Source: Chiloscyllium plagiosum
Lineage: Eukaryota
Length of the DNA: 64,000 bases
Assembly: GCF_004010195.1 (NCBI RefSeq)
Contig: NC_057718.1
Location: 52,408,254 to 52,472,253 of the forward strand
Direction of reading: 5' to 3'
Below, one piece after another: positions 8,686 through 64,000 of this stretch. The notes beneath the pieces were generated by a model. The model made no database searches, was not told the DNA's origin, and was given only the letters and a program-made list of their open reading frames with translations. The stretch's first letter is position 1; each line of letters begins with the position of its first letter. The position numbers were made by a program, and so were the translations under genes.

Positions 8686-9001
8686 TAGATTAGATTAGAT
8701 TACTTTACAGTGTGGAAACAGGCCCTGCGGCCCAACAAGTCCACACCGACTCGCCGAAGCGCAAACCACCCATACCCCTACATTTACCCCTTACCTAACA
8801 CTACGGACAATTTAGCATGGCCAATTCACCTGACCTGCACATCTTTGGACTGTGGGAGGAAACCGGAGCACCCGGAGGAAACCCACGCAGACACGGGGAG
8901 AATGTGCAAACTCCACACAGTCAGTCGCCTGAGGCGGGAATTGAACCTGGGTCCCTGGCGCTGCGAGGCAGCAGTGCTAACCACTGTTCTACCGTGCCGC
9001 C
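8686..9001 (-). mobile_element. HE1-type SINE, full length
   Basis: Same structure as 98-409: A/B boxes, central block and (AATCT)n tail. Confidence 0.92.
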
Positions 9002-17059: not shown

Positions 17060-17320
17060 GGGGTGGCATGGTGGCTCAGTGGGTAGCACTGCTGCCTCAC
17101 AGCACCAGGGTCCCACGTTCGATTCCAGCCTCAGGTGACTGCGTGGGTTTCTTCCCATGGTCCAAAGATGTGCAGGTTAGGTGAATTGGCCATGCTAAAT
17201 TGCCCATAGTGTTAGGTGCATTAGTCAGAGGAAATGGACCCGGGTGGGTTAGTTTTCAGAGGGTTGGTGTGGACTTGTTGGGTCAGAGGGCCTGTTTTCA
17301 CACTATAGCAAATCTAATCT
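17060..17320 (+). mobile_element. HE1-type SINE with two internal deletions
   Basis: A box TGGCTCAGTGG, B box GTTCGATTCC and tail AATCTAATCT. The central block is largely missing relative to 17896-18211. Confidence 0.9.
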
Positions 17321-17895
17321 TATACCAGATACAAGTGACTGGGATGAATATCACTTAACAGAGATTCCATTATCCAAAATCCCACGCTGGGCTACCAGCC
17401 CCATGATCACAAGGACATAAATAGGATGGCAATAGCTGCAGAATTGACACCCGAAGCTATAATTTTTCAGGGGATTCGCCTCTGACACAAGCTTTAATCT
17501 CATCCTCAACCTCTTGGAATAAAGGTTCTGCAGTTTCACCAGCTCATTCCTGGGAATGAAGTGCCATCAAAAAAGGATCACCTTGTTCCTGAAGCTCTTC
17601 TTCTTAAACATGAGGGCCAATCACCATGAAAGATACTGACCTAGGTGAATCACCAGCAGGGTAGTGAAAAATGTTTACTTGCAAATAAATTGCTTATGCT
17701 CACTTTGTACTTTATTAAAGTAGAATGTGCACTAATGACATGACTGGCTATTCATGGGTGTTAGATTCAGACTTGAAATGGGGCACCTGCTTTAGATCAT
17801 TTTTGTTGGAATGTTCCTGTATGGGCAAAGCAACCTCATTATACAGAATTGCATTCAGTAAACAACACATAAACAGACTCTTTGGTCTCAATGGT

Positions 17896-18211
17896 CGTGG
17901 TGGCACAGTGGATCTGTGGTTAGCACTGCTGCCTCACAGCACCAGAGATCCGGGTTCAATTCCCGCCTCAGGTGACTGACTGTGTGGAGTTTGCACATTC
18001 TCCCCGTGTCTGCGTGGGTTTCCTCTGGGTGCTTCGGTTTCCTCCCACAGACCAAAAATGTGCAGGTTAGGTGAATTGGCCATGCTAAATTGCCCATAGT
18101 GTTAGGTGAAGGGGTAAATGTAGGGGAATGGGTCTGGGTGGATTACGCTTCGGCAGGTCGGTGTGGACTTGTTGGGCCGAAGGGCCTGTTTCCACACTGT
18201 AGGGAATCTAA
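17896..18211 (+). mobile_element. HE1-type SINE, full length
   Basis: B box GGTTCAATTCC, central block, and 3' GGACTTGTTGGGCCGAAGGGCCTGTTTCCACACTGTAG. Confidence 0.92.
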
Positions 18212-19789
18212 GCTTGTGATTTCAAATAAACCTGTTGGTCAGTAACCTGGTGCCATGTGACCTCTGACGTGATTACTTTACAATGATGATTTACAGCTTT
18301 ACACTGCCTCACAAATGGGAGCATTGGCCAGAATTTTATCAGCTTATTCTGGGACCGACTTGGTGGAGCACCATTTGCAGGTTAGGAATTTAAATGGTGA
18401 AGGAATGAATTGTGCTGAGGTTTCTTCCCAGAGCCATGCCATTATCATCCCTTTGTTGAGATAAAGCACGTCCATTCTGTTAAAATAAGAATTTCCAGTT
18501 AAAGTGAACTACAGCTTGGGGTTGGAGGGCTCACTGACACTTAGACTGTTGAGACTGCACAACCATAGGAATGGAGAAGATACCTGACGCTTTGTCAGCT
18601 ACTGCTGCCCACACACCAGAAAGAAGATTTGTTCCGCAGGACTAAAAAATGTCAGCAGCTACCTACTTTCAGAGCCAGACTCTCCTGAAGCACAAATGCT
18701 CACATATCTCAAGAGACCTGAACTCAGCTTGTAGACCTATTGTTAAGGGGCTCCCAACTTAACAGATGAGACTCAGTTTTCGTCCTTTCAACCCTGTGGA
18801 GAGGCAGATGACTGAGAAGAAAGCGGCCGGACAGGGTGTTACTGCATATGCTGTTGCTTTTCACCTTGCCCTTCAGAGGTACAATGTGTAGCTGCAATAG
18901 CTGCCTCTGTGCCATGGTGAATGCTGGCAACAGTACCCGAATAAAGTGGCATACAAGTAAACTTCCTTCCAAGAAACTGGCAATCACCTGTCAAGTAGTG
19001 ATAGCACTCATTGACATATGCAGTACTTTGATCAGCATCTTCTCACCTTGCTGAAGCTTTCCAGTTTCACTCGTCAAAGCTTTTCTGGCTCGTCTGTTTT
19101 TACTGAAGAGGTTTTTCTCACTGCAATTGTGTCTGTGTGACATTAGTGAGTTGCTGACAGGTTAGGGAGTAGACACCCTGACTGTTAAATCTAAGAGAGG
19201 AGAATAAATCTTAATTGACTTAAGTACCCTAAGTTCTTTCCCAACAGATATAAACGGTGCTCTCTTTGAATCCTGCCACCAGTTGTTTGTTCGAAATCCA
19301 CCTTTGAGTCTACTCTAGACCTTTCACAGTTTTAAAGACCACCATCAGCATCATCTTCACAAATATTGTCAGGTTTAAGGATGGTTCTGGATAAACGGAT
19401 TGGTTGTTTTATGCAGATGAAAAAGAAGCAGTCACAAGTAACTTGAGTAACCATTAAATCAAAGAGAAGACTTGAAGGAACCAGGTTTGGAGGAGCTTCA
19501 ATGGTGATACTTCGGCTATGCATATGAAGTAGCAAGATGTAGCTCATCATTCAAAAGCATTCAATAACCCATGACTTTATTTTTCTCTTAAGCAGGTTAG
19601 GAGGGCCTGAATTTTAAAGAATGAATTCATATTCTGGGGTATTGTGTTTTAAAAAGAAACTTAAGAAGTCTTCTGCATCAGCTCAATGGCGTACAATCTG
19701 TGATTCCTGGATAGTAGGAAAGGCTGCAACAACAGCTGGAATTTTCCCATTTGTGCTTAAAATGTGGTAGCGAGGAAGCTTCATAATGC

Positions 19790-23747: not shown

Positions 23748-24114
23748 GGTGCCACTATCACTTAGTGGTTAGTACTGCTGCCTCACAGTGCCAGGAACCC
23801 ACGTTCAATTCCATTCTTGGACAACTGTCTGTGTGAAATTTGCACATTCTCCCCATGTCTGCATGGGTTTCCTCCAGCTGCTCCAGCTTCCTTCCACAGT
23901 CCATAGGTGTGCAGGTTAGGTGGATTGGCCATGCTAAATTGCCATATAGTGTCCAAAGATGTGTTGGCTGGGTAGACTAGCCATGGGAAATGCAGGGTTA
24001 CACGTATCAAGTAGGGTCTGGGTCAGGGTGGGATGGTTTTCGGAGGGTCAGTGTGGACTCAAAGGGCTGAGTGGCCTGCTTCACTACTGTAGGGACACTA
24101 TGATTCTATGATTC
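23748..24114 (+). mobile_element. HE1-type SINE, older and longer subfamily
   Basis: B box GTTCAATTCC and the central block are present. It has an extra segment near 23950-24010 and an octamer-type tail TATGATTCTATGATTC. Confidence 0.88.
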
Positions 24115-25935
24115 GCAGTTTGTTCATCACAGACTGCCTGTCTCCTTCCTCCCACCCATCCCAAATTAATGAAGCAAGGCAAGCCATCCAGAAGCTTGTA
24201 GCCTGTAACCAAGCATTGAAGACCCTGTGCAAAGTGTGCTAAGAAAGTAATATGAAGTGAGCAGAAGTGAGAAAACGCCAAGTAAGCACAAAAGTGAACA
24301 AGAAAGCAAACTAAGACCTATAAGATGCAAGGGTTGATGTCAGTGCAAAAGCATCCTGTGCAGATGTATGTCTGTCCATGCACACAAAGCAACTTGATAG
24401 AAGCGTGCAAGTCAAAAGTGTCTCTGACATCCAAAGTAAAGTGTTGAAGGGCTGAAGTGCCATCTGAGCAGATCTGAGATCAAGCATGTGATGTGATGGG
24501 GTTGGTGGTTTGTCGATACCCACTTATACAGCTGAAGGGCAAGGAAAGTGGTGATCATGGGACATGCTAGGGGTGGTGTTCAGACATATAGTTGCATGAT
24601 GGCTGAAACAAGCATTCAGTAACGATGTCTGTCAGGTACCCAGTATGAATTACGTAAATTTCATGAATCGTGCTAACTAGTTTCCGGGTGGGGAGGCAAA
24701 GAAAATTGGAAATGGCATACAAGTAAGGCGAATTGAATGAAATTCAATGTAGTACTTTGAAACTAAAGGTAGTCATTAGTCCAAGGTAAGGTTCTGAAAT
24801 TGCCATTTAAAGCTTGAGGAGAAGAACAAGGAAAATTTTTTATTGATGTCAGGAATCTGATATTTTCATTCTCATTGTAATTTTCCATTTTTCTTATTAC
24901 AATTTGACTTCGTACAGCTTTAAGGAAGCCCAGCAAAACTACAGTCAGTGGGAATCAGGGGGTAATCTCTCTGTTGGTTGCAGTCATACCTGGCATGTAG
25001 GAAGATGGTTGTGGTTCTTGGAGATCAGCCATCTCAGCTCCAGGACATCTCCGCAGGAGATCCTCAGGGTACTATCCTCGGCCCATCCATCTTCAGATGC
25101 TTCATCAATGACCTTCCTACCATCATAAAGTCTGAAGTGGGAATGTTCTCTGATCATTGCACAATGTTCAGCACCATTTGTAAGTCCTGAGATTCTGAAG
25201 CAATCTACATCCAAATGCAGCAAGACCTGGGCAATAGCTGTGGGTGGGCTGACAAGCAATAATTAACATTTATGCCATATAAACACCAGGCAATAACTAT
25301 CACCAGCAGGAGTGAATCTAACCATCACCCCACGACATTCAATGGTGTTACCTACTCTCAACATTCTGCAAGTTACAATCAACCAAAAACTGAAATGAAC
25401 TAGTCATATAAATATTGACCATAAGAGCAAGTCAGAAGCTAGGAATCCTTTTGTGAGTAACTCACCTCTATTCCCCAGAGCCAGTCACCATTTACAAAAG
25501 TACCATGAGCATGATGGAATACTCTCCACCTCGCTACACAAGTGCAGCTCAAACAACACTCAAGAAACCTGACACCAGGACAAAGCAGCCAACTTGGACT
25601 GTTCCCACAGTCACACTCCTGCATTCACTCCCTTGACCAGCAATGCTCAATAGCAACAATATTTACCATCTATAAGAAGTACGAGCAAAAATCACTAAGG
25701 CTCCTTAGACAGCACTTTCCAAGTCCATGAACCTTACCATCTCAAAGGTCAAAGGCAGGAGACTCATCTGCAAGTGCTCCTCAAAGCCTCTACCATCCTG
25801 ATTTGGACATATATTGCCATTCCTTCAGTATCACAGGGCCAAACTCCTGAAACGCCCTCCAAAACAGTGTGTGGGTATACCTGTACTTACACCAAGTAAC
25901 AGTTCAAGAAGGCAGCTCACCTCTATATTCTCAAG

Positions 25936-26100
25936 CAGCATCCAGGGAACAGGAGAATCGACGTTTCGGGCATAAGCCCTTCTTCAGGCTTATGCCCGAA
26001 ACGTCGATTCTCCTGTTCCCTGGATGCTGCCTGACCTGCTGCGCTTTTCCAGCAACACATTTCCAGCTCTGATCTCCAGCATCTGCAGACCTCACTTTCT
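25936..26100 (+). mobile_element. Short Penelope-like terminal insertion with inverted 5' arm and perfect 16 bp TSD
   Basis: TSD CCTCTATATTCTCAAG at 25920-25935 and 26101-26116. Internal inverted repeat. The sequence matches the PLE terminus at 60520-60650. Confidence 0.9.
25960..25987 (-). ncRNA. Minimal hammerhead ribozyme core (PLE-type)
   Basis: Minus strand reads CTGAAGA-A-GGGC-TTAT-GCCC-GAAAC-GTC: CUGANGA box, 4 bp stem II, GAAA box and GUC triplet, with palindromic ACGU in place of stem III. Confidence 0.65.
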
Positions 26101-28039
26101 CCTCTATATTCTCAAGGGCAACTTGGGATCAGCAATAAATTCTGCCCCAGAAGCCGACATCCACATCTCATGAATTATTTTTTTAAAAATCATCACTCTT
26201 GCCATACCAAGAAGGGAAATATTGTCCTGCTAAGAATAGCTTATTGGCTATATCTCAATGATGCATTTGAAGGGAAAAGGCCTTTAAAAATCCTTATTAA
26301 CAAGCAAATGTTAATGATGGCTGAAACACATTTCCTGTAAGCTGAGAAACAGCAACATTAACGGACATGATCTGTGGAGCAATTGCAGTTAGTAACAAAG
26401 ATCAAATCATGGGTTGCTATGGGAACACCAGAATGAAGTGGCCCAATCTTAACACAAACCATCACCAGTCAGCAACAAGTGACACACATGGTGAGAAGCC
26501 CAATTGAGTGCTGAACAGTGCATGAAGAAAGTAATCACTGAGATGAACATATGAAAATTAGGAAGGAAGTATGGATGCAGAGAACATAAGAATTTAATAA
26601 TACCCACTGTTTTCACTTTTGTCAGCTGCAATGGGTGGGTTGCAGTCTTACAGAAAGTAGGAAATACCTTGACATGAAACCAAGTTCAATGAATTTCAAG
26701 CTCACATATGTGTATCAGCTCGTGAATGAAGTTTTGTTTATACTGCCTCCTGTCTGATATTAAGATGATATCCACTAGCTGCCTGAAATGAATATGTGGT
26801 AAATGTTGAGTGCACTAAGCCACAGAGAATGCAGTGTGGATTTGTATCAGTGTGACCACAAGTTCCTACGACCAAATTAGTTCATCTTTTATGAAACAAA
26901 CATTTCTAATACCTATTTCATCACTATGGTTCCCAAAGGATCTGTTTTGCATATAGATTTGTGGAGGGATGAGGGGTGATACCTGACAGCATCAATTCAG
27001 TTTAAATGCTGTTACATTCTCCTTTCCTCCATTCTGTGTTGCTTATCCGCTCCTTCTCCAGAATAAAGATATACCACAACATTTCAATAGGGAATATCAT
27101 TCATGCCCTGGAATGCCTCTCACTGTGCAGAAAATATTTCCAGTTTTGCAATACCATATGGAATCAAAATCCAAACAGTTGAAGTAGAATTGAAAAATAT
27201 GTAATTCCACAAAATTTTTAGCAGTTTCAGTTATTGTTCCTGAAGCTTTTGCAATATTCAAGCTTAAAAATCAGTCACTACTGATTCTGGAAATTGCAAT
27301 TTCTAATTTGAATCACCCTTAGTTGTATAACAAACAAAAGCAGGACTCATAACACCACTTGTTCCAATTACCATGTAGCCAAAGCATACTCTTTTCCAGA
27401 CAACTATAACAAAAGCCCATTAATGTATTCTAGAGAACATGAATTCAAAACAGGCTGTAAAAGTTTAAAATAATAAACTATTATGGTAAGAGTGATGATG
27501 ATGTTGCACAAATAGCTTTATTTCTCTGCAGAAATTCTTTTAAAAATTAAAATATTTGGAGCTTGACATATCATGAAAGACTTGACAGTTGAGAGCTCTG
27601 ACAGTTCCAATGATTTCATACACTTTTTAGGCATTTTCATGTGTACCTTTAGCAATTCTAAAGGGTGCCTGACCCCTCTCCATCCCTCCCCCACACCAAA
27701 CAAAAATGACTACTGCCACTCCTCCCAGCCCATACATCCCTACACCTAGAAGGTACCCAACACCATATCCAAAGGAATACCTTACATCTTGAAAGGGATA
27801 CCCTTGCTATCTAAGTAAATCCCCAAAGTTCAGACCTACACTTAGCTGTATCGGTGAATAGGACTTGTGATCTCAAAGCATTTCTGCCACCATCATCACA
27901 ACAAAGAGGCTCTCCACTGTGGCCAATGTCCACATACATTCTAGCACAATGTTATGACTAGAATTTGTAAAAAATTACCAAAAATGCTATTCAAAAATTT
28001 TAAAATGAATTTATACCTCAAGAACATCTGCTGTATTGC

Positions 28040-30642: not shown

Positions 30643-30730
30643 GAGGAGAAAGTGAGGACTGCAGATGCTGGAGATCAGAGCTGAAAAGTGTGTTGCTGGA
30701 AAAGCGCTTTTCCAGCAACACATTTTCAGC
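30643..30730 (-). mobile_element. Very short fold-back PLE terminal insertion with ~17 bp TSD
   Basis: TSD AGCTT(G/A)AATCTATTGTT at 30626-30642 and 30728-30744. Palindrome TGTGTTGCTGGAAAAGC|GCTTTTCCAGCAACACA. Confidence 0.85.
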
Positions 30731-33373: not shown

Positions 33374-33436
33374 CAATGAACTGCTGCAGAATGATGGCAA
33401 CATGATTGTTGCAAGGATATTGGGCACCGAAGGTGT

Positions 33437-33632
33437 AAGTGAGGACTGCAGATGCTGGGGATCAGAGTCAGGATTAGAGTGGTGCTGGAAAAGCACAGCA
33501 GGTCAGACAGCATCCGAGGAGCAGGAAAATTGACGTTTCGGGCTGAAGTGCTCCTGCCCGAAACATCGATTTTCCTGCTCCTCGGATGCTGCCTGACCTG
33601 CTGTGCTTTTCCAGCACCACTCTAATCCTGAC
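33437..33632 (-). mobile_element. Fold-back PLE terminal insertion with 78 bp arms and ~17 bp TSD
   Basis: Arms 33466-33543 and 33556-33633 are near-perfect inverted repeats. TSD TATTGGGCA(CC/AT)GAAG(G/T)T at 33418-33434 and 33633-33649. Confidence 0.88.
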
Positions 33633-33719
33633 TATTGGGCAATGAAGTTTATGGTCACTTACCAGTTAGATACTGAGGGGGTGGAATCGCTTGTTGTTAT
33701 GCTATATCTCAGAATTTAC

Positions 33720-38672: not shown

Positions 38673-38770
38673 GGTCAAAACAATGACTGCAGATGCTGGA
38701 AACCAGATTCTGGATTAGTGGTGCTGGAAAAGCACAGCAGTTCAGGCAGCGTCCGAGAAGCAGTAAAATT

Positions 38771-38798
38771 GATGTTTCGGGCAAAAGCCCTTCATCAG
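38771..38798 (-). ncRNA. Minimal hammerhead ribozyme core (PLE-type)
   Basis: Minus strand reads CTGATGA-A-GGGC-TTTT-GCCC-GAAAC-ATC. The GTC to ATC change is consistent with CpG decay. Confidence 0.6.
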
Positions 38799-38907
38799 GA
38801 ATACAGGCAGAGTGCCTGAAGGGTGGAGAGATAAATGAGAGGGGAGGTGGGGGTGGGGAGAAAGTAGCATAGAGTACAATAGGTGAGTGGGGGGTGGGGG
38901 TGAAGGT

Positions 38908-43650: not shown

Positions 43651-43780
43651 AAAGTGAGGACTGCAGATGCTGGACATCACAGTCAAGATTAGAATGATAC
43701 TGGAAAAGCACAGCAGGTCAAGCAGCATCCGAGCAGCAGGGAATTCGACATTTCGGGCAAAAGCCCTTCCTCAGGAATGC
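43651..43780 (-). mobile_element. Short PLE terminal insertion containing a hammerhead core
   Basis: Same terminus as 33437 and 38676. Minus-strand CTGAGGA-A-GGGC-TTTT-GCCC-GAAA-TGTC at 43747-43774. GGAATGC occurs at both junctions. Confidence 0.85.
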
Positions 43781-47000: not shown

Positions 47001-47056
47001 AGGTGAAAGTGAGGACTGCAGATGCTGGAGATCAGAGTCAAGATTAGAGTTAATCT
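47001..47056 (-). mobile_element. 56 bp PLE 3' terminal insertion with perfect 14 bp TSD
   Basis: TSD AAACTCCAGTCACT at 46987-47000 and 47057-47070. The insert is the PLE terminus AAAGTGAGGACTGCAGATGCTGG ending in mini-inversion AGATTA-GAGT-TAATCT. Confidence 0.9.
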
Positions 47057-47991: not shown

Positions 47992-48317
47992 TTAGATTAG
48001 ATTTTTATTAGATTACATTACAGTGTGGAAACAGGCCCTTTGGCCCAACAAGTCCACACCGACCCGCCGAAGCGCAACCCACCCATACCCCTACATTTAC
48101 CCCTTTACCTAACACTACGGGCAATTTAGCATGGCCAATTCACCTGACCTGCACATCTTTGTGACTGTGGGAGGAAACCGGAGCACCCGGAGGAAACCCA
48201 CACAGACACGGGGAGAACGTGCAAACTCCACACAGAGAGTCGCCCGAGGCGGAATTGAACCCCGGGTCTCTGGCGCTGTGAGGCAGCAGTGCTAACCACT
48301 GTGCCACCGTGCCGCCC
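47992..48317 (-). mobile_element. HE1-type SINE, full length
   Basis: A box TGGCACAGTGG, B box GGTTCAATTCC, central block and (AATCT)n tail. Confidence 0.92.
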
Positions 48318-48559
48318 ATTGTGGTATGTTTTGGTGTTTTTAGTACTCTAATGAAGAGAGATGGGAGGGTGATATGAGGAGCATACAAACAAGCATGGAC
48401 CTGTTGAAATCAATGTCCTGTTTTGCTGCTGTAAATATGTGGTGATTTTAATTATAGTTTAGTTTTGCTACTTTTATTACCAAATCAAAATATATGGTGT
48501 GTTGACATAATAGATCCCACAACGACAGCATGACTGCTGAGAAAAGAGAAACATACTCT

Positions 48560-49724: not shown

Positions 49725-52700
49725 AGACCATAAGACATAGGAGTAGAAGTAGGCCATTCAGATTATCAGATGTGTTTTGCCATTCAGAAATATCATGCCT
49801 GATCTCACATTGTTTAACTCAATTTTTCTGCCTTTTCTTTATAGCCCTTGATTCCTTCACTGATCAAGATTCTATTTTAGCCTTGAGTGTACTTAATGAC
49901 TCAGTCTCAACAGCCTTCTGTGTTAAGGAATTCTACAGATTCACAACTCTTTGAGAAAGAAATTCCTCCTCACTTCTGTCTTAAAAACGCGACCCCTTAT
50001 TCTGAGCTTATGCCTTCTGGCCCTAGACTCTTCCAAAGGGGAAACAACTTTACCACATCTACCATGTCAAATCCTCTGGAAATCTAATATGTTTCAAGAA
50101 AGTTGCTTCTCAAGTCATTTCTCTTCAACAAGTACAGATCCAGTTTACTCAACCTCTCCTCATAAAACAATCCCTCCATCCCCAATATCAGCCAAATAAA
50201 CCTTCTCTGGACTGCCTCCAGTGCCACATTACCTTCCCATAGACAAGGGGCCCAAACATTGTCCGCATTACTCCAGCTGGGATCTAAAGGATGCCTGGTA
50301 TATGATGAGCAAAATCTGCATAACCTTTATACTCCATTCTCTTTGAAACTAAGGCCAATATTCTCTTTGCCTTCCTGATTACCCAATAAAGTTGGATGCT
50401 AGCTTTTTTCAAATCCATGGCCAAGGCATCACAAATCGCTCTGTTCTGTGGCTTTCCATAGTCTTTCTACATTTAAATAATATTCAACTCCTCAATTTTT
50501 CCTGCTGAAGTGCATAATCTCACACTTCCCATGTTATATTCCATGTGCCAAGTTGTTACCCACTTACTTCACCTGTCTAAGTCCTTCTGGTAAGATTTTA
50601 TGTCAACCTCACTACTTGACTTTCCTTCTATTTTTATGTGATTTGTAAACTTGGCTATAGTACATTCAATTTCTTCATTCAAGTCATAAATATGCATTGC
50701 AAGTAATTGTGGCCGCAGCACTGATATCTATGACACACCACTATTTACTGGTTTCCATCCTGAAAATGCCAGCTTTATCTCAACTCTCTGTCTATTAGTT
50801 AACCAATCCTTTATCCTTGCTAATATACCATATTCAACATGATGGATTCTTGTCTCATTAAGTAGCCTAATGGGTAGCACCATAACAAATGACCTTTGAA
50901 AATACGAATAGATTATATGCACTACCTTCCCTTTATCTATCCTTATTGCTACCTCCTCAAAGAATTCTGGTCAACTTCTAAGGTAAAATAATTTCCCTTT
51001 GATTACATTATGTATTTCTAAATGCACTGCTATTGCATCCTTTCTAATGGAATCCAACATTTTCACAATAAAAAACATTAAGCTAACTGGTCTATTTTTA
51101 CCTTTTTTTCCTGTTTTAAGTAAAGTGTTACATTGGCAGTTTTCCAATCCTCTGGGACTTTTCCAGAATTTAAGGATTCCTGGAAGGTTACTGCCAGTTT
51201 TGTTTGGGACCTGGATGTTACTGGCCAGCACTTATTACCCTTCAGAAGGTGAGCAGCCATCTTGGAAAGCGCACTCCATGTGCTGTAGGTTGGCTCACAA
51301 TGCCCTTAGGAAGGGAATTCTTGGACTTTGCTCCAGTGACCGTAAAGGAACAGCAATATATCTCCACGAACAGGATGGTGTGCAGCTTGGAGAGGAACTT
51401 GTGGGTAGTGGTGTTCCTTTGTATCTGTTGGCCTGTTCTTCTAAATGGAAGTGTTGTGGGTTTCGAAGGTGCTGTCTAAGGACCTTTGGTCAATTTCTGC
51501 AGTATTGTTGACAGTATTCACTGCTGCTACTGAGCATCATGGAGGAGGAAGTGAATGCTTATCGATGTGATATCAATCAAGCTGGCTGCTTAATCCTGAA
51601 TGGTGACAAGCTTCCTGAGTCTGGTTGGAGCTGCACCCATTCAGGCAAATGGGGAATATTCCATCATACTCTTAAACTGAGCACAGATTTTGGAAGGTCA
51701 GAAGGTGAGTTTCTCACCACAGTATTCTGAGTGTCTAACCTGCTTTTTTTTTTGCAACAGTAGTCATGTGGTAAGTCCAATTGAGTTTCTAATCAAAGGT
51801 AACCACCAGCATATTGACAATGTGAATATCAGTCTCAATAACATAATGGAATGTCAAGGGCCGGTGGATAGATTATCTCTTATTGTGATGGCAATTGTCT
51901 CTCATTTATGTAGCGCAAATGTTATTTGCCATCTGTCAGCCCCAGTCTGGATATTTTCCAGATCTTGTCGCATTTGAACATGGACTGCTTCAGTATAGGA
52001 GGAGTCACAAATGCTGAATATTGTCCAATCATCAGCGAACATCCCCACTTCTGACCTCATGTTAGAGGGAAGGTTGTTGATGAAGCAGCTGAAAATGGTT
52101 GGACATCAGACATTACCCTAAGGAACTCATGTAGAGATGCTATGGAGCTGACATGACTGCCCTCCAATAACCATCTTCCTAGGTGCCAAGTATGACTACC
52201 AGAGAGTTGGTCCCCAGTTCCCTTTGATTCCAGTTTTGCTGAACACCTCGATGCCACACACGATCAAATGTGGCTTTGATGTCAAGGGCTGTCACTCTCG
52301 CCTCACTCCTGGAATTCAGCTGTTTTGTCCATGTTTGAACCAAGGCTGTAATGAGGTCATGAGCTCAGTGGCTTTGGTGGAACCAAACTGGGCATCACTG
52401 AACAGGTCATTGCAGAGCATCTGCTGCTTGATAGCACTGTTGATGACACTTCCATCACTTTACTGATGATTGAGTGTAGATTGATGGGACAATAATTGGC
52501 CAAGTTGGATTTATCCTGCTTTTTGTGTACAGGACATAGCTGGGCAACTTTCTACATTGTTAGATAGATATCAGTGTTGGAACTGTACTAGCACAGCTTG
52601 GTTCAAAGTGCTACAAGTTCCAGAGAACAAGTCTTCAGTATTATTATCGGAATGTTGTAGGGTCCCATTACCTTTACAGTATCCAGTTTCACCAAATGTT

Positions 52701-54890
52701 TCTTGATATCATGTGGAGTGAATTGAATTGACTGAAGATTGGCAATGATGATGCTGGGGACCACTGGAGGTGGCTGAGATGGATCATCCACTTGGCACTG
52801 CTGATTGCTGCGAATGCTTCTGCCTTATATTTTGCACTAATGTGCTGAGCTCTTTCATCTTTGAGGATGGGAATATTTGTAGAGCCTCTTCCTCCTCCAG
52901 TGATTTGTTGAATTGTCCACAACAATTCGTGGCAGGACTAGAGAACTTAGATCTGATTTTTTGGTTGTGGGATTGCTTAGCTCTGTACTTCACTTGCTGC
53001 TTATGCTGTACAGCATGCAATAGATCCTGTTTGGTAGCTTCATCAGGTTGACACCTAATTTTTCAGTCTGCCTAGTACTGCCTTGGCATGTCCTCCTGCA
53101 CAGTCCATTGAACCAGGGTTGATCCCCTGGCTTGATGGTATTGGTTGAGTGGGGAAATGCCAGGCCGTGAGGTTGCAGATTACAATGGAGTACAACTCTG
53201 CTGCTGTTAGTGGCTCACAATACCTCATTGATGCTCAGTATTGAGTTGCCAGATCTATTCAAAGTTTATCCCATTTAGCATGGGATAATGCCACACAACA
53301 CAATGGAGGTTATTCTCAATGTGAAGGTGGGGCTTTGTCTCCACTGGACAATGCAGTGGTCACTCTTAACAATACTGTCATGGACAGATGCATGTGCAGC
53401 TGGCAGATTGGCACGGATGAGGTCAAGTATGTTTTCCCTCTTGTTGGTTCCTTTACCACCTGCCACAGGCCTAATCTAGCAGCTATATCCTTAGGGATCC
53501 AACCAGCTTGATCAGTAGTCCTCTGTTGGTAGTCAACATTGAAATCCTCCACCCTGAGTGTATTTTTCACTCTTGCTATCCTCAGTGTTGAATATGGAGG
53601 AGCACCGATTCATCAGTGAGGGAGGATGGTATATAGTTATCAGGAGCTTTCTTTGCCCTTTTTATCCTGGTGCCATGAGACTTCAAAAACTCTGCAGTCA
53701 ATGCTGAGGATTCGCAGAGGAACTCCCTCCTAACTGTATACTACTGTGCCACCACCTCTGCTGAGTCTATCCTGCCTTTGGGATTGGACATATCCAGGGA
53801 TGGTGATGGTGGTATCTGGAACATTGTTTGTAAAGTATGGTTTCATGATTGTGACAATATCAGGCTGTGAGACACACTCCTAATTTTGGCACTCGCTCCC
53901 AGATGTTAGTAAGGAGGACAGAGTTGACAGGGCTGTTTCTGTTGTGGTCATGCCGAGGTTAATGCCAGGTGGTCCATGAAGTTTCATTTCTTCGTTGAGA
54001 TGTTGTAGCAATTGTTCCAAGTAGATAACTTGCTCAGCCATTTCATAGGATAGTTGAGAGTAAATCACATTCTTGTCAGTCTGGAGTTGCATGTAGGCCA
54101 GACGAGCTACGGATGGCAGATTTCCTTCCCTGAAGGAACCAGATAGATTTTTCTGACAATCAACAGTGGGTTCAAATTAGATACTTTTATTGAACTAAAA
54201 TTCCACTATCTGCCATTGTAGGATAGAAAACCAGGTTTCCAGGACACTAATTGAGTTTCTAGATTAATTGTCTTGCAATAATTCCATTCACCATTACCTC
54301 CCTTCAGTGCATCCACTATTTCTGTAGCTATTTCCTTTAATATCCTAGAATGTATTCCATCAGGTTTGGGGGACTTTTCGCTCTTTAGCCCTGCTAGATT
54401 CCCTTGTAATTTTTTTCTCGAGACAGTTATTATATTGATGTTCTCCTCTTCTTTTGCCCTTTGAACATTTGATGCTATTGGTGTCTTCTACTGAGAAGAC
54501 TGATGCATCATTCTCTGACGGGTCATTTTCACTTTGGCATAGTCTCACTTTATATATTTAAAAAAGCTTTTGCTGTACATCTTGACATTACCTATAAATT
54601 TACCATTAATGCTTATTTTCTTAATTTTTTTTTTGGTTGTCTTCTGATAGTTATTAAAGCTTTCCCAATGGTCTGGCTTACTACGAATCTTTGCCGCATT
54701 GTAAATTTTCTTTTTCTCTTCAATCTGATGCTATCCTTAACTTCTAAGGTTAACCATGATTGGCTTATCCCCTTCTTAGCTTCATTCTTCCTCACTGGAA
54801 TATGCTTTTGCTGTGAGTCACGAATTATTTTCTTAAACATCTGCCATTGTTCCTCAACTGTTTTTGCTGCTCAGCTCCACCTCCAGTCCA
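49725..54890 (-). mobile_element. CR1 LINE relic (49725-51198 plus 54305-54890) interrupted by the SINE-headed LINE
   Basis: Tail (TCTTATG)-like at 49725-49740. Peptides SGKVPEDWKTANVT and NRPVSL. ORF2 sequence resumes at 54305 (CAGTGCATCCACTATTTCTGTAGCT). Confidence 0.85.
51199..54304 (-). mobile_element. Near full-length decayed LINE (APE endonuclease plus RT, no ORF1) with a tRNA-like SINE head
   Basis: Reading 5' to 3' on minus: SINE-like head (54304-~54020), then LLTNIW, PDTTITIPGYV..RQDR..RGGGTVVY, EDFNV, ILDLI..SDH (APE), then AQFGF, ALDIKATFDRVWH, PTIFSCFINNLP..VGMFADD (RT). The 3' end matches 26116-26175. CAGT is present at both junctions. Confidence 0.85.
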
Positions 54891-54944
54891 CACCATGTCT
54901 ACTCTGCATTCATTCATTTGAAGTATATGTGCCTCATGAATATC

Positions 54945-56330
54945 CTGTAGCATTGGGATATCGCACAAGAAACAGCTATCACTAGAATCAACCAAGTGAC
55001 CACAATGTCAGCACTGAGGTACCATGCTATGATATCTATGATGAAGTTACCCTGCAGCGTGATGCCTGTGAGATGTGACTTGGAGCAATCCTAATGCAGC
55101 AAGGCCAAGCAATTGCACTTGCAATTCAAGGCATTAAAGTAAACCGGACAATGCAAAGCTCAGATTGAAGAAGTGTGCATGGTTATTGTCTTTGTGAAAA
55201 TTTTAATCAATACATGTTTGGGAGAGCCAAACTGACAGTGGAATCTGACCACAAATACTTCTTCAAAACATCTTCCTCAAGCTGTTTCTTTCGGCCCTCC
55301 AAAACATCTTCAAAAAATGTTACTTCATTTACTGAGATATCATCTCTGGATGTAACATACAAGCAACAGAAACAGATGTATACTGCCAATATATTGGTGA
55401 CAGCAAAATTCTCTATAACACAAGCTGAGGATGCTAAGACAGTGTGTTAAATTTTTAACGAGGAGCAACAGTTTGAAGTCATCAACCCAGCAGTGACAAT
55501 GAATCTGAAAGACAGACATCACAGTCAAATTCAGCAAACTAGGCAAATTGATGCAACACCCAATGTACTGCAGTAGTAATTATAAAATGAGAGCATCAAA
55601 GTCCATTGCTGTGAAAGAGTATGGAATAGGCAGTAATGAAATTATAGTCTAAGAAGTCATCTTGAACAAATGAAATAGCTGTTATTATTCCCAAGGTGAT
55701 GAAAAAAGAAACATTGAGCACATCCATGCAAACAACCAACGAATTGATTTGAGTCTGACAGACCTAGTACAGTGCTGGAATGAGTAGCAAGGTAAGCAAG
55801 CTAAAAAACAGTTGATACCACATGTCACTGGTCATATCACTGATGGTCTGTAAGTTTGCAAAATACCTGAAAACATAATTTATTCATTAGGGCAATCTGA
55901 TATTGGGATGAGCGACTCTGGTCCTCAATTCATGGATGAACAATTTAAGTACTTCATAAACAACTGGAAAAGTCAACACCATATACTGCTGCAGTCAAAT
56001 GGAGAGGCTATTACTGTAGTAAAAATCATCAAAGGGATCATCAAGAGACTAACCAAATCCAGTCCAGGCTTGTACATGGCAATGTTTGAGTGGAAATTAT
56101 ACATCTACTGAAGTTATGGGAAGTAGTACTGTCTAAAGACTAATGTTATGCAACATTCAAACTATTCTTCCAATTAGAAAATAAATAACCGAAGCCAGAG
56201 GTAGTCACAGGCGCGAGCAACAAAATCAAAGTGAAATGACCAAAAGGTGAATTTCAATTTAAAAGGAACCAACTCATTACCAGAGCTGAGCACTGGAGAG
56301 CTAGTCAGCGTGCTAATGTTCAATTTGGAA
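54945..56330 (+). mobile_element. Ty3/Gypsy pol relic (RT-RNase H linker, RNase H, integrase)
   Basis: WDIAQETA, EVTLQRDACE..LGAILMQQGQAIALA, AQIEE, FNQYMFGRAKLTVESDHK (RNase H), then SDSGPQF and QSNGEA (integrase). RH-then-IN order is Gypsy-like. Confidence 0.88.
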
Positions 56331-56859
56331 CAAGAGTTCGCCAACTTGTCAATTTAGGACCTATTTTGAGCAGTTACCCCCCCCTCAATCAAATGTGCTG
56401 AACATGAATGATCAGATATAAAGACACAACTGAAAACAATGACAATTAGAGAAGTTGCTCCTTCACTGCAGACTGCTGAACAGAAAGGTGCAATTATTCC
56501 ATCTGCACAAAATGCAGAAAAAACGATCAGTCCCAGAAGTCCACCATTTGCCAGGAATGGAAATGGATCACCAACAACACTAATCATGGGAGTGACATGG
56601 GAGGGCACATCACACTAGGAATACATGGATGCCAAAAAGAACAGCCATAAAAATGTGCTTGTGTACCATGAGATGACCTGCTAAAAGATTATGTGTGAAA
56701 TACAAATGTAGAGACTGTCAAGTGGGACTGACTTGAATTAACGCAAAATTTTGTGAATCGTCGATTTTCTTTTTTGTCCATGGATTTTGAGTGACTTGGG
56801 TAACTTATAGCAGGATATGCTAATACTTGCAGTTATCTTTTATCTTCTGCTTTCTTTAC

Positions 56860-58120
56860 GAAAAGGGGGATGTTTGGAAAAATGAATTTCTGACTTGGAT
56901 TGAAAATTGAAAATTGGTTGGCTGACAGGAAACAAAGGGTAGTGATAAACGGCTCCCTTTCGGAATGGCAGGCAGTGACCAGTGGGGTACCGCAGGGATC
57001 AGTGCTGGAACCGCAGCTTTTTACAATATAGATTAATGATATAGAAGATAGTATTAATAGTAACATTAGCAAATTTGCTGATGATACAAAGCTGGGTGGC
57101 AGGGTGAAATGTGAGGAGGATGTTAGGAGATTACAAGGTGACCTGGACAGGTTAGGTGAGTGGACAGATGCATGGCAGATGCAGTTTAATGTGGATAAAT
57201 GTATGGTTATCCACTTTGGTGGCAAGAGCAGGAAGGCAGATTACCACCTAAATGGAGTCAAGTTCGGTAAAGGGGCAGTACAAAGAGATCTGGGTGTTCT
57301 TGTACACCAGTCAATGAAGGCAAGCATGCAGGTACAGCAGGCAGTGAAGAAAGCTAATAGCATGCTGGCCTTCATAACAAGAGGGATTGAGTATAGAAGC
57401 AAAGAGGTTCTTCTGCAGCTATACAGGGCCCTCGTGAGACTGCACCTGGAATATTGTGTGCAGTTCTGATCTCCAAATTTGAGGAAAGACATTCTGGCTA
57501 TTGAGGGAGTGCAGCGTAGGTTCACGAGATCTATTCCTGGAATGGCAGGACTACCTTACGCTGAAAGACTGGAGCGACTGGGCTTGTATACCCTTGAGTT
57601 TAGATGACTGAGAGGGGATCTGATTGAGACATATAAGATTATTAAAGTATTGGGCACTCTGGAGGCGGGAAACATGTTTCTGCTGATGGGTGAGTCCCGA
57701 ATCAGAGAACACAGCTTGAAAATAAGGGGTAGGCCATTTAGGACAAAGATGAGGAGAAACTTCTTCACCCAGAGAGTCGTAGGTGTGTGGAATGCTCTGC
57801 CCCAGAAAGAGTTGGATAGAGCTCTCAAGGATAGTGGAATCAAGGGTTATGGAGATAAGGCAGGAACAGGATACTGATTGAGGATGATCAGCCATGATCA
57901 TAATGAATGGTGGTGCAGGCTCAAAGGGCAGAATGGCCTATTCCTGCACCTATTGTTTATTGTATTTGTAAACAGTGTACTGGCTGGCTTGTCACAGTCT
58001 TGTGACCTCTACCTCTGCCTCGAAAGTGTTCACTTTAGTTTGTGCAGCCATTAAATACACTACAAGAAGGAAGTTGAGTTCAGAATTACATTCAAGTGCT
58101 TTACAAAATTGCATATGACA
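56860..58120 (+). mobile_element. Polypurine tract and probable 3' LTR of the Gypsy element, interrupted by a CR1
   Basis: GAAAAGGGGGA is followed directly by TGT at 56871. After the CR1 there is ATTAAA near 58050 and a TGACA end at 58120. Confidence 0.5.
56894..57966 (+). mobile_element. Young CR1 LINE (RT to 3' end)
   Basis: GVPQGSVL, KFADDTKLGG, LQGDLDRL, YRALVRLHLEYCVQF and NFFTQRVVGVWNALP, followed by the 3' UTR. Confidence 0.95.
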
Positions 58121-59414
58121 GCCACTCATGAGTCTATGTTTTGCAGCCTAATATCTGTCCCAAAGTAGCTTTGGTTCAGAAAACAAACACTGTCTTAAAA
58201 ATTCTACCAGAGTTAGACCTACTGGTAAGAGTGTTTTTTTTGTTAGATTTGTCCATTAGCGGGAGATAGAGTGTGCTGCTGGCATTCTGTGCAATACTAA
58301 AAATTGATCCAGAATGTTACAGTGCAATTACAATAATTCTGGCATAAACTTCCAACTCATACTCAAGCAGCCACATCTCTTGTAGTCTGCCTCTCGGCAC
58401 CATGTTCCCAGAACCAAATGTTCTGTTCTGTAACTGTGATATTGTAAAGAAGACCATTGTTTTTGAAACCATTGACCTGTATCCATGAGTGATTTTTTAA
58501 AAAATGTGCTTCTAATGGTATTGAGCTTGGGAGTATTTTGATTTTCAAATTTAAACACTATGCTTATCGAAAAGCTAAAGCTTTTTAAAATTAGCCCCCC
58601 CACAAGACCTGTTAAACATTTTCTTCGCAAAATTAAGTTCTTTTGCAGCCATTCAAAAATTGGAGGTAGCTACAATGAACCAGTAGTCGCAATGACTGTT
58701 GTACAAATACAGTTGAATTGAGATTAAATAAATGGACGACTGAACCTGTAGTTATCTCTGTTTGGTTTTGAAGCAGAGTCATATGGGACTTGAAATGTTA
58801 ATCTTATATCCCTATACAAAGATGCTGCCATAACTGTTGAATTTCTCTCACTTTGCATGATATTTTGAGAGTGCTACCCAACTGGGAAAGGGGAGAAAAA
58901 ATTACCAGGATCATTTTCAAACTTTTGCTAGCTGATGACTTTAGATAATTTTCCTACTCCAAGTTCATCAGAGTTATCCTTTTGACTTCGAAAATATGGA
59001 ATGGAGCAACTACAAATTGATGCTACCCAGGATATCTCAGTTTTTGCAGAGGAAGAGAGTGTTGCAGGTTACTATCGGGTGGTCTGCATGCATTTCTTCA
59101 TTCATATTATTTAAGAAAATCATGTGGGTGAACCAGTAATATTCACAATGCTGCCAGTCCTCAGGAACCGATTTAATCTGAGTAGTGTTACTTAGCAATC
59201 AAATATTAAACTCAACTTCTAATTTTTAACTGAAATTTTTAATTATATTCAAACACAGGGTTAAGGACTTCTGACTTATTTTATTCACTAATTTTGTATA
59301 GTGATTTAGATAGTTTCAGTTCACTGGTAGCACCAGGAGAAACAAGTGTAGAATTTCAAAATTTCCAAGAATTTCTTTCCACTCATTCCAACTGATGTCA
59401 CCTTATGATCATCA

Positions 59415-59582
59415 GTAGTAGACTCACCAACTTTAAGGGCATTTAAGTGGTCATTAGATAGACATATGGATGAAAATGGAATACTGTAGGTTAGATGAGC
59501 TTCAGTATGGTTCCACAGGTCGGCGCAACATTGCAGGCCGAAGGGCCTGTACTGCATTGTAATTTTATATGCTCTATGTTCA
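59415..59582 (+). mobile_element. CR1 extreme 3' fragment
   Basis: GGCGCAACATTGCAGGCCGAAGGGCCTGTACTGC...TCTATGTTC. Confidence 0.8.
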
Positions 59583-60123
59583 GAGCAAACATGTGTTTGA
59601 GATAGCAGATTTTTAAAATATAAATTTGAGCCCAAAGAATGTGGAGACAGAGTTACACATTTGCAGATTCTGAGCAGATCATTGATGGTACAACTGGAAG
59701 ATCAAAATTGATATGTTTAAAATTACTTTCCTTGATCTACGTGAAGCAGCAGGCATTGCTGGATTCCACAGCAGCAAAACAAATCATAATCATCACCCTC
59801 CTCCACAAACTACCTCATTATATCATAGTCGATTCCATATAGTGGTTCAAGCCCTTGAGCCCCGCCCCTCCAATCGCCACCAGGACAGAACCCCACTGGT
59901 CCTCACCTCACCACCCCACCAACCTCCACATACATCGTATCATCCGTCGTCATTTCCGCCACTTCCAAACGGACCCCACCACCAGGGATATTTTTCCCTC
60001 CCCTCCCCTATCAGCATTCCGAAAAGACCACTCCCTCCATGACTCCCTCGTCAGGTCTACACCCCCCACCAACCGAACCTCCACTCCCGGCACCTTCCCC
60101 TGCAACCGCAAGAAATGCAAAAC

Positions 60124-60354
60124 NNNNNNNNNNNNNNNNNNNNNNNNNNNNNNNNNNNNNNNNNNNNNNNNNNNNNNNNNNNNNNNNNNNNNNNNNNNNN
60201 NNNNNNNNNNNNNNNNNNNNNNNNNNNNNNNNNNNNNNNNNNNNNNNNNNNNNNNNNNNNNNNNNNNNNNNNNNNNNNNNNNNNNNNNNNNNNNNNNNNN
60301 NNNNNNNNNNNNNNNNNNNNNNNNNNNNNNNNNNNNNNNNNNNNNNNNNNNNNN
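60124..60354. other. Assembly gap
   Basis: Run of N. Confidence 1.
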
Positions 60355-60527
60355 CTGCACCACCTCCCTAACCTGCAATCTTCTTCCTGACCTCTCTGCC
60401 CCCACCCCCACTCTGGCCTATCACCCTCACCTTAACCTCCTTCCACCTATCGCATTTCCAACGCCCCTCCCCCAACTCCCTCCTCCCTACCTTTTATCTT
60501 AGCCTGCTTGGCACACTCTCCTCATTC

Positions 60528-60555
60528 CTGAAGAAGGGCTCATGCCCGAAATGTC
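60528..60555 (+). ncRNA. Minimal hammerhead ribozyme core (PLE-type)
   Basis: CTGAAGA-A-GGGC-TCAT-GCCC-GAAA-TGTC. The C to T change is at a CpG. Confidence 0.58.
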
Positions 60556-61364
60556 GATTCTTCTGCTCCTTGGATGCTGCCTGACCTGCTGCACTTTTCC
60601 AGCAACACATTTTCAGCTCTGATCTCCAGCATCTGCAGTCCTCACTGTCTCTGAGATGCAAATAGTTCCGACTTTAAGTTTAGCGAGATGCACAGAATCC
60701 TCGGGCTGAATATTGACAGCCCTGAATGAAGATGGCAATGGTAAATCAATTGGGAAAATATGGCAAGATCAGTAGAAATGAGATTCTCAACGCCAAGGGA
60801 AAATAATCCAATCTCCATGCAAGACCTGAATGGCGAGATGAGCATCTTGCAGGTGAATATTCACAGACCTATTTGGAAGCCTTAACATTCCATATGACCT
60901 ATTTGTACCTGATTTATATGCAGTTTACTAATCTCCCATGGAGCTTAGAAAACTAGACGGCAACAATGCCTGACATGAAAGTCGTAGCAGGTACCTGGTA
61001 ACTGCAGCTCGTTGTTTGCTCCACTGGGCTTCACGTTTGGCTACTCTTCAGACAACTTCAGAAATGGCCATGTCTCAAAGTGTAAGGGAGGAGCTCTGAG
61101 TCAAGGAAATCCGGTGTTCCCACCACAACCAGTGAAAGGTGGTATCTGATCTTAGCTCAGGGGCTTGGACACAGTCAGTCAGCTGCATGGAGTAGTCAAG
61201 ATCAATTGTTCTGTATCATTACATTCTGGAGAGTGGGTCACAGTTAGAACTGCAGATCCAGTGCAGATAGTCAGAGATTTAGCAGGAAACCAGTTGGGGA
61301 ATTGCACATAAATCAGGAAAGGGTCTGGTCAGTCATCACTCCTTTCAGGCTGGTCAAGCAGTGG

Positions 61365-61494
61365 TTCCTGATGAAAGGCTTATGCCCAAAACATCAACTT
61401 TTCTGCTCCTCAGATGCTGCCTGACCTACTGTGCTTTTTCAGTGCCACACTTTTTGACTCTGACTCTCCAGCTTCTGCTGTCCTCACTTCTTCC
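61365..61494 (+). mobile_element. Short PLE terminal fragment
   Basis: Starts TTCCTGATGAAAGGCTTATGCCCAAAACATC (decayed hammerhead) and ends GTCCTCACTTCTTCC. Confidence 0.85.
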
Positions 61495-63136
61495 ATGGTG
61501 GTTGGCCATGGTGGGTGTGCTTCCTGAACGTCAAGGAGGTTAGCAAGGGCCACCACTGAGTAACGAAGTTGTGGGGTTTACAGTCAGCATGCTGGGATAC
61601 AAAGGTAATAATAATTTGGCACAGGGAAACTCAATGTATAAGCATGGCAGCTGCTAATGCATTGAAGTGTCTGTGTTACAGTGAGAGTAGGTTAACAATG
61701 ATCACCAGCACTCTGGGGGCATTGTACATTATTACAGTTAAGTTATAGGTCTAGAGGTCAGGAGGTGATATTGGAAGTTGAAGACTTGAACAGAGCAGAG
61801 AATGGGAATTTGGAGATGCTTAGGACTGATGGAATCAACTGGGATTATAAGAAAGTAAATGTGAAAGTTTGTGGCTTACCTAGATTACCAAGCTGAGCCT
61901 TTGACTCAATCTGTGAAGCATGAACTTCCATCCTCATCCAAATTACAAATACAAAATGGTGGCCACCACACAGGGAGTGGGCAGAGCTTGTACTTTTTCC
62001 TGTCTTAACACATGGACTCCATTTGTGAGTAACGTGAGCCTCTTCAAGTGGTAAGCGTATTAATCAGGCACTTATACAGTGCAGGTTAAAGACATTTATA
62101 CTCATAGCATGCTACGTGTGAAATGCATGCAGTGATCGACTAAAAGAGACACAAATCCTGTCCACAATCCATCTTGACCACATCACTGGTCATTATTGTC
62201 ATCTCTGTGAATCAGAAATAATCACAGGTGGTCTTAAAGTTGTTCACTATGGCCAGAAATAACAAAGGCAATCCCTGGTCTCAATGTGTGTGGGCTTGAA
62301 GCTGGTTTCCTTTCCAAGCACTCACTGACACACTCTGATATGCAATGCTGTCTTTCTTGTACAATGTGAGGGGTGGGAGGACAAGACATCAGTAATCATG
62401 CAGCATTTACAATCTCCTATTGGATTTATACAATGTGATTTGTGCTGCATACATCAGAATAAAGCCCGATATGTAAAAGTTCCATATACATGCCCTCCTT
62501 GTCAGAGTCGTCCATCTCTCACTGTATCGAGGATCATGATAAAATCTTATTTATGTATGATGTGAATACTGCTCATATTAATAAGGACATCCTCTGTTTC
62601 TGATATTCCACCCACAAGTTGGTTGGAACAGATTTATATTCAGAAACGATTAGTGTTACTGTGGCTGTGTGCAACAATTGTGCAGAGAAAGTGAGGAGGA
62701 ACAAATGTGCCCACAAGACTAGAACCAGCAGTAACCTCCAGTGACTCCAGCCTCTACATGATGGACTCAGAAGTGAAAATACCCTCAGGATGCAGAGCAG
62801 GCACAGGAAGCTCAGAGTCTATTGTGATCAATGCTATTTCCTCCTGATGAGCAAAGAACATTGCCATTGCAGACTGAGGATGCCCTGGGACATCTTCACA
62901 GAACTACCAGCTGATGGAGTGGGCCCTGTGACATGAAGTTGGCAACCATCTTGTCTTGGGGGCCATCAAGTTAGGACAGATGCACTTGTTTTAAATTGTG
63001 AAATAGAGCATGTAATTTATATACATAAATGTAATTAATTTTGAGTTTGGGTTTTGAACTCATGGCATGTGGATTTTGGTCTACAAGGGAGATAAATAAT
63101 TAAGGTGCCAGTCTTTTTGAAGCCATGATTTTTTAT

Positions 63137-63450
63137 GGGGAGGTGATGGCCTAGTGGTATTATTGCTGGACTGTTAATTCAGACCCAGGTGACATTCTGG
63201 CAGATTGCAGGACTTGAATTCAATAAATATGTGGAATTAAGAATCTAATGATGCCCATGAATCCATTTTTGGGAAAAACCCATCTGGTTCACGAATGTTC
63301 TTTAAGGAAGGAAACTGCCATCCTAACCTGGTCTGACCTACATGAGATATACATCAATTTGGCTGACTCTTAACTGCTCCCTGGGCAATTAGGGATGGGC
63401 AATAAATGCTGCCTTGCCAGTGACACCCTCATCCCATGAATGAATAAAAA
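63137..63450 (+). mobile_element. tRNA-derived SINE with MetaSINE-like central domain and LINE-derived tail
   Basis: A box TGGCCTAGTGG (63147-63157). The B-box region appears deleted. Central block AAAACCCATCTGGTTCAC..TTTAAGGAAGGAAACTGCCATCCT (63274-63345). Tail GGGCAATTAGGGATGGGCAATAAATGCTG...CCCATGAATGAAT. Confidence 0.8.
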
Positions 63451-64000
63451 CAACAGTATGTATCAAAGAGAATCATGCTGGGATCCTCCTAAAGTGATAA
63501 TGTCAGCTTGTTTGTACTGTCAAGAGTTGTAGGATTAGGGAGTGCAAACATTGAAAGGCATTACCTTGCTTTAGAAGCATCAAGAATTAATTTGTTTTTG
63601 CTTAGAAAAATGTTGGTGTCAGTTCACAGATGACCTGACTATTGACAAATGTAATAAATTTGTTTTGAAGAAAGGAGTCGGTTCATAATAGTTCAGGAAC
63701 AGCTCACCTCTGTGTGATGGTTCAGTTTGAAAATTGCAGACTCAAAGGGTGATTTGAAGTTAAGAAATTTGAAGCTCAATTGAATGAAGAATCAAGAAAA
63801 AATCTATCAAGCTCTCAAGACCAGGAATTAAAAGAAAAAAGAACTCTCTCTCTGTGGAAGCGAGTGCTATAAACCTTTAGCATTGAGCTAGATAGGGTTC
63901 TGTTCTCGAATGTTTAAAATCATGCAAATTGTGTTATAAGTAAATAGTTATTTTGTTCTTGTTTACTGTCATTTCTTTTGTGAGATCAACTTCTGATTTC

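Follow-up and report, generated by a model that had tools for sequence, protein, structure and literature searches.

The window analysed here, 64,000 nt of the Chiloscyllium plagiosum genome (NCBI RefSeq assembly GCF_004010195.1, contig NC_057718.1, forward-strand positions 52,408,254 to 52,472,253), contains on its minus strand, at 51199..54304, a long interspersed element (LINE) that begins with a tRNA-derived head, a promoter piece that to our knowledge is normally found only on non-coding short interspersed elements (SINEs). By its sequence the family is the elasmobranch Zenon LINE of the CR1 group, already in print (PMC13343379), and we propose that this shark and ray LINE is probably transcribed by RNA polymerase III (Pol III) from an internal promoter derived from tRNA-Ser. 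The anatomy of the element, its uniform 5′ start, the purifying selection in its head-bearing subfamilies and the depletion of T-runs from its sense strand are established.

A single insertion with a family-wide 5′ end

The element is a decayed full-length copy of a family of ~3.3 kb, its first 400 nt matching by eye the published elasmobranch Zenon consensus rows, and it interrupts open reading frame (ORF) 2 of a host CR1 element, whose upstream part lies at 54305..54900 and whose downstream part lies at 50050..51198, likewise on the minus strand. From its 5′ end, the insertion comprises a tRNA-Ser(GCT)-derived head (54211..54304; A box 54293-54284, B box 54232-54221) and a conserved body common to the LINE and to SINEs (54044..54210), which ends at the junction of one SINE family, SINE-a, with a TGA at 54045-54043 closing the endonuclease frame upstream. 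A LINE-specific leader follows (53920..54043), containing a small hairpin, the junction of a second family, SINE-b, near 54019 and a conserved out-of-frame ATG at 53987-53985. The leader precedes a single ORF for an apurinic-type endonuclease (APE) and reverse transcriptase (RT) (51235..53919; disrupted here, with a family length of ~980 codons) and a 3′ tail with an A-rich end, shared with the SINEs (51199..51250), of which ~19 nt are deleted here.

The G-rich start and head at 54302 aligned to a SINE at 63137, and the 3′ tail aligned to the tail of that SINE, in agreement with a sequence-only reading of this stretch, which had matched the minus-strand start to the same SINE and noted a decayed B box and the SINE central block. 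The order it gave for the endonuclease motifs, the RT motif and the tail was recovered (VLLTNIW 53919-53899, RQDR..RGGG ~53777, SDH 53364-53356, FADD 52039-52028), with the correction that the endonuclease, placed there ~100 nt past the head, begins ~385 nt from the 5′ end and ~125 nt past the SINE-shared block. Both boxes of the window copy are decayed, and this decay is private to that copy. The same reading held that head and body lie between one pair of junctions in the host CR1 ORF2, and indeed ACTG, single at the empty site in other host CR1 copies, stands on both sides of the window element (minus strand; 54305..54308 on the 5′ side and 51195..51198 on the 3′ side), so one 4-bp target-site duplication encloses the whole unit, and head and body are one insertion. 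At this locus the head has no duplication of its own, and a short A-rich run follows it in all family members. Target-site duplications sought across the family gave no signal over shuffled pairs (n=5, P 0.45; n=13, 3.31 vs 3.26 nt, P 0.48), and the 4-bp duplication therefore comes solely from the empty-site comparison at the window locus. With 82% identity to the family majority, 27 frameshifting indels and many stops, the window copy is dead, as had been recognised.

Whether many loci share the head-endonuclease junction was a question raised by the sequence-only reading, and the 3.56-Gb host genome holds it at dozens of independent loci. When the junction itself served as query, the best 40 of 6810 candidates were scored and all extend into the endonuclease; when a better-preserved copy did, the best 40 of 16,584 were scored and all span from head or body to the start of the ORF. 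We extracted 20 + 38 genomic loci for comparison, many of them ordered head, body, APE, RT and tail, and 33 of the 37 copies with a 5′ match, which had been selected using the head, start at the same G-rich position. An unbiased test used the endonuclease alone as query and covered 29 of its 39 non-self matches, six of the 29 already being in the earlier sets. Fifteen start at family positions 1-9, 13 are truncated within the same 5′ sequence (positions 29-398) and one starts inside the endonuclease, at 561. An alternative 5′ untranslated region (UTR) or leader occurs in 0/29 of these endonuclease-selected copies, and ORF1 was likewise not found in them; full-length copies with another 5′ UTR and an ORF1, which the sequence-only reading had named as one of its refutations, are thus absent from this set, and neither of its other two refutations (a junction restricted to this locus, a head with its own tail or duplication) is borne out. 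The feature is real throughout a large family, and the same head-endonuclease junction is found in the published consensus of five species. At six loci (L047, L004, L034, L049, L126 and L134), a further copy of the LINE lies only a few kb away, in tandem, nested or inverted.

Promoter boxes and sense-strand T-runs

Local alignment of the head to a tRNA-Ser(GCT) gene scored 70, against a maximum of 48 in 500 shuffles; the genomic genes came from a pattern search, in which ARAGORN called 4/5 gene-like matches as tRNA-Ser(GCT). For the family we took the column majority of 32/38 copies, the six with <1500 aligned nt being left out, and in this majority of 3295 nt both the A and the B box are canonical. 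Strict box matches persist in about half of 26 decayed copies (A 13/26, B 14/26). All seven published elasmobranch consensus rows, from five species (CarCar, RhiTyp, HypSab, ScyCan and SquAca _Zenon), begin with the tRNA head and are near-identical by eye to the window family over the first 400 nt that their available sequence was compared for; in these rows, again by eye, the A box changes only at tolerated positions, the B box is canonical in 6/7 and the spacer between the boxes varies. No tRNA cloverleaf was called by ARAGORN in 11 head-bearing loci, the alignment has no acceptor-stem pairing, and an Rfam scan of 51000-64000 returned six chance-level matches, with no family above threshold and none in the head. 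Because the boxes are kept while the spacer changes and no cloverleaf is called, it is promoter motifs rather than tRNA structure that persist. Just after the tRNA part, at family position ~113 (window ~54192), stand an AATAAA and an A-rich run, present also in 4/5 published species; they may represent what is left of the tail of an ancestral tRNA retrocopy, and would burden a transcript made by RNA polymerase II (Pol II).

Pol III normally makes no protein-coding RNA. Its transcription terminates at oligo-T, as the available text of PMC4494074 also describes. On the sense strand of the family majority, runs of at least three T (T≥3) number 6 against 22.3 expected and runs of at least four (T≥4) 0 against 4.6, with runs of A, C and G near or above expectation. 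A host CR1 majority built in the same way from 24 copies holds 28 T≥3 runs against 21.0 expected and 6 T≥4 runs against 5.0. Synonymous-codon shuffles of the LINE ORF gave 4 T≥3 runs against 13.0, with 0/2000 shuffles as low, compared with 24 against 24.1 for the host CR1. TTTT is absent from the 3.3-kb sense strand in three majorities, which answers with zero the count in the consensus that the sequence-only reading had called for, and natural LINE copies hold 44 T≥4 runs against 170 expected, the other bases not being depleted. Among 31 loci of metagenome relatives, all 17 ORFs of at least 450 codons hold 3-42 T≥4 runs, with a mild deficit in one T-run measure in two of them (L238 and L245); no A/B-box pair was found by scanning the 31 loci, the headless relative L234 included, and no tRNA by ARAGORN in 16 metagenome loci. 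A coding strand stripped of T-runs makes transcription by Pol III likely.

The tails are the only region of the element where T-runs are common, and in 5/13 full-length tails (L123, L128, L140, L141 and L147) a T≥4 run stands just before the A run. These runs probably reflect decay of the tail after insertion, although they may instead descend from a terminator in the source copy.

Coding capacity, relatives and derived SINEs

The family majority is open from nt 295 to ~3233, except for one unstable G run found in about half of the copies, and natural fragments match PF14529 and PF00078. The family consists of the tRNA-Ser-derived head, a ~200-nt body, one endonuclease-RT frame, a short tail and an A-rich end that is not a microsatellite, leaving no space for an ORF1, in line with the sequence-only reading. 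Between two head-bearing subfamilies that are 94% identical, dN/dS in the ORF is 0.16-0.23, compared with 1.1 and 2.1 in shifted-frame controls, and the ORF on this evidence evolved under purifying selection between them. The low ratio between headed subfamilies implies that the headed lineage made its own protein, which supports the autonomy of the element that the sequence-only reading had proposed.

According to the available text of PMC13343379, Zenon LINEs occur in elasmobranchs, coelacanth and hagfish; every one of them lacks ORF1 and ends in a poly(A) tail, and the elasmobranch members are said to be absent from repeat repositories. For stingray and whale shark, a few ORF2s are given as intact in its table. 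As presented there, the elasmobranch elements resemble the window family, with a length of 3.2-3.3 kb, a single APE-RT ORF, no ORF1 and an A-rich tail, and show no structural difference from it. The tRNA head is not visible in the first 400 nt of the coelacanth row or of either hagfish row. The family, on whose earlier description the sequence-only reading was undecided, is therefore known, and its lack of ORF1 is a feature of the clade, while the tRNA head is apparently unreported. The main text of PMC13343379 has 0 mentions of tRNA, promoter or polymerase III, and mentions SINE once, in a reference; the head, the T-run depletion and the derived SINEs are absent from this account, apparently making them an unreported architecture of a known family. 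In the literature searched, whose scope excluded Repbase, Dfam and subscription journals, no paper was found that describes an autonomous LINE as tRNA-headed or as transcribed by Pol III.

An RT tree of 70 domains, with no labelled Zenon among them, placed the element far from the host CR1 (34% identity) and near metagenome proteins (45-50%), and a protein search returned only relatives of 28-38% identity. The closest headless relative recovered, L234, lies in the sister clade (49% RT identity, support 0.84) and has an in-frame Met just ahead of the endonuclease. Given this placement of L234, the head and the T-run loss look derived in the elasmobranch lineage. Three related metagenome ORFs (L238, L239 and L240) have long N-terminal extensions, that of L238 ending in GDIHPNPGP, which we take to be a 2A-like ribosome-skipping sequence.

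The same head occurs on SINEs assembled from the two ends of the LINE. In SINE-a, represented in the window by the copy at 63137..63449 (plus strand), the first ~290 nt of the LINE are joined to its last ~65 nt, with an identical junction in 29/29 copies examined. A pattern search yielded 44 further elements, of which 40 have a second junction ~25 nt deeper in the LINE (SINE-b) and four have private junctions, one of which uses a 6-nt microhomology that each end of the LINE contains. Identity to the respective majority is 78% for SINE-b (8 copies chosen for a recognisable head), 88% for SINE-a and 87-91% for the LINE subfamilies, by which measure SINE-b is older than SINE-a. By eye, the SINE-b head resembles the dogfish consensus; the body of SINE-a is the shorter one that the LINE of this genome also has. 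These sequences are read most simply as SINEs that arose from the headed LINE more than once: an internal deletion of the LINE would give a complete SINE, and such events likely produced two or more families and several single copies. The sequence-only reading, which took a SINE-type head to serve as 5′ UTR, was right about the anatomy; the evidence favours the local SINEs deriving from the LINE. Either a tRNA directly or an older SINE may have supplied the head of the LINE itself. The body was also considered as a Deu domain, and this was rejected as the alignments of Deu, Meta and UCON3 (PMC7245038) are unlike the body by eye; for the Deu/Nin central domain, the comparison with the Deu alignment covered only its 130-140 nt core.

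The window holds further repeats. A second, older, 5′-truncated copy of the same LINE group lies on the plus strand at 24902..25935, running from the RT to near the 3′ end with 68-70% identity to family copies. A separate ~315-bp SINE family, presumably HE1-like, has copies at 98-413, 8690-9006, 17899-18214 and 48007-48318, with partial copies at 17061-17324 and 23764-23952; its copies are 88-94% identical to one another and show no match to the Zenon element or its head within the window. Short palindromic elements (25931-26103, 30643-30707, 33431-33633, 38685-38814, 43651-43779, 47001-47050, 60514-60651 and 61365-61489) match one another on both strands, and a degenerate tandem array of ~63-nt units occupies 5322-5750.

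Transcription models and comparison with known systems

LINEs and SINEs are usually divided by polymerase, into protein-coding elements transcribed by Pol II and non-coding parasites transcribed by Pol III. In the model we propose, Pol III would start at the first G of the head, read through 3.3 kb from which the element has shed oligo-T terminators and, in the manner of SINEs, terminate at T-runs in the flanking DNA. From this uncapped RNA a single endonuclease-RT protein would be made with no in-frame AUG to start from; the protein would then attach to the 3′ tail and integrate a copy by target-primed reverse transcription, each full-length copy thereby carrying its own promoter, and internal deletion of the headed LINE would give a complete SINE in a single step. 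We hold this whole account, of an autonomous LINE transcribed end to end by Pol III, translated in this way, kept since before the shark-ray split and serving as a recurrent one-step source of SINEs, with somewhat less assurance than the use of the promoter itself, and regard it as a little better than evenly supported.

Several observations weigh against it. The model does not explain how an uncapped 3.3-kb RNA is translated. The endonuclease frame opens just past the TGA with which the body ends, and no in-frame ATG precedes the enzyme core. The leader has a K/R-rich open stretch in the endonuclease frame and a conserved ATG 55 nt past the TGA in a different frame; its dN/dS, on 11-12 changes, is 0.56 in the endonuclease frame, 0.40 in the ATG frame and 1.4 in the third, and no conserved slippery heptamer was seen in it by eye. 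None of the copies seen in this genome is intact, the longest stop-free stretch of the ORF in any natural copy being 307 codons. The absence of TTTT is not significant on its own with either codon use (P 0.07-0.09; 0 vs 2.3 with P 0.07 in synonymous-codon shuffles) or TT depletion (P 0.12) modelled, and a dinucleotide model lowers the T≥3 effect to 6 vs 13.7, significant but weakly so (P 0.014), since the dinucleotide TT is itself scarce (105 vs 137). The five-species comparison is limited to the first 400 nt of each consensus, and all Zenon elements lack ORF1, headless ones too, so the loss of ORF1 was not caused by the head. RNA placed on one copy (L119) amounted to 623 reads in one run and 0 in the other, with no discrete start; this comparison, which covered two raw runs and two contig sets and whose reads derive from mixed copies in a poly(A) library, is uninformative on polymerase, start and strand.

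Some of these difficulties would disappear if the captured head were simply the 5′ UTR of a Pol II transcript, driven from the head and body or from a flanking promoter, with the T-run loss caused by splice-acceptor pressure, by U-rich decay or termination pressure, or by composition. A capped RNA would solve translation, the leader offers a conserved ATG, LINEs are generally taken as Pol II transcripts in the available text of PMC5786205, and the absence of TTTT taken alone has P 0.07-0.12. We nevertheless consider this explanation rather unlikely, given that the leader ATG is out of frame with the endonuclease, that neither the host CR1 nor the 17 related ORFs have lost T-runs, that the boxes are kept in five species despite a drifting spacer, and that the 5′ ends coincide with the tRNA start instead of being variable. 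That uniform end near the tRNA +1 might alternatively arise at the RNA level, by analogy with the R2 and RTE ribozymes, if the transcript were cut at a tRNA-like structure or if head and body formed a ribosome-entry structure; the first 350 nt have a more stable fold than their shuffles (z -2.6), and the lack of an in-frame AUG would fit. With no cloverleaf called, an acceptor stem left unpaired in the alignment, no Rfam family at threshold in the scanned region, and a T-run loss over 3 kb that processing leaves unexplained, we regard a head acting at the RNA level as improbable, while a role of the head in translation is compatible with transcription by Pol III.

The abundance of SINEs with the same head also raises the possibility that an ordinary SINE inserted beside individual LINE copies, or was joined to them by template switching, or that the element is a non-autonomous chimera. 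This is very improbable: dozens of loci and five species share one junction, neither a SINE tail nor a target duplication separates head from ORF, one duplication surrounds the whole unit, the ORF shows purifying selection, and the 29 unbiased copies include no headless full-length form.

If transcription by Pol III is correct, a selected 3-kb ORF behind a tRNA promoter would break the division of LINEs and SINEs by polymerase and would be a natural case of protein made from Pol III RNA. Deleting the middle of a headed LINE would likewise be a new route to a SINE, whose body would be visibly a LINE 5′ UTR. The question is directly testable, and family sequences from five species are already public.

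Known systems share parts of this arrangement. In the L1 system, RNAs made by Pol III can retrotranspose with no need of ORF1p, according to the available text of PMC2666806. SacSINE1 and the Deu-SINEs, as well as HE1/HER1 of sharks, are tRNA-headed SINEs that share their tail with a CR1-group LINE (PMC3747384, PMC4824008, PMC5499810), and in the accessible parts of these accounts no head is reported on the partner LINEs, L2-2_CM and HER1. Bov-tA with Bov-B, SINE2-1_ACar with Vingi-2_ACar and other SINEs of this type likewise combine a tRNA head with 5′ and 3′ LINE parts (PMC4494074, PMC5786205); there, as described in the part of PMC4494074 consulted, the head was gained only by the non-autonomous derivative and the LINE is headless, whereas the shark LINE is itself headed and belongs to the CR1 group. 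A SINE body derived from a LINE 5′ UTR was proposed by Kojima 2018 for RTE and Vingi only, LINE 5′ parts in SINE bodies being found solely for these two groups in the available text (PMC5786205). The lepidopteran Zenon is, like the shark family, a single-ORF Zenon that spawns short elements from its two ends, and it yields the promoterless internal-deletion derivative Persaeus. As far as the available text of PMC6740152 goes, Persaeus has no tRNA homology or Pol III promoter; in the shark, by contrast, the parent LINE carries the promoter, and its deletion products are therefore true SINEs.

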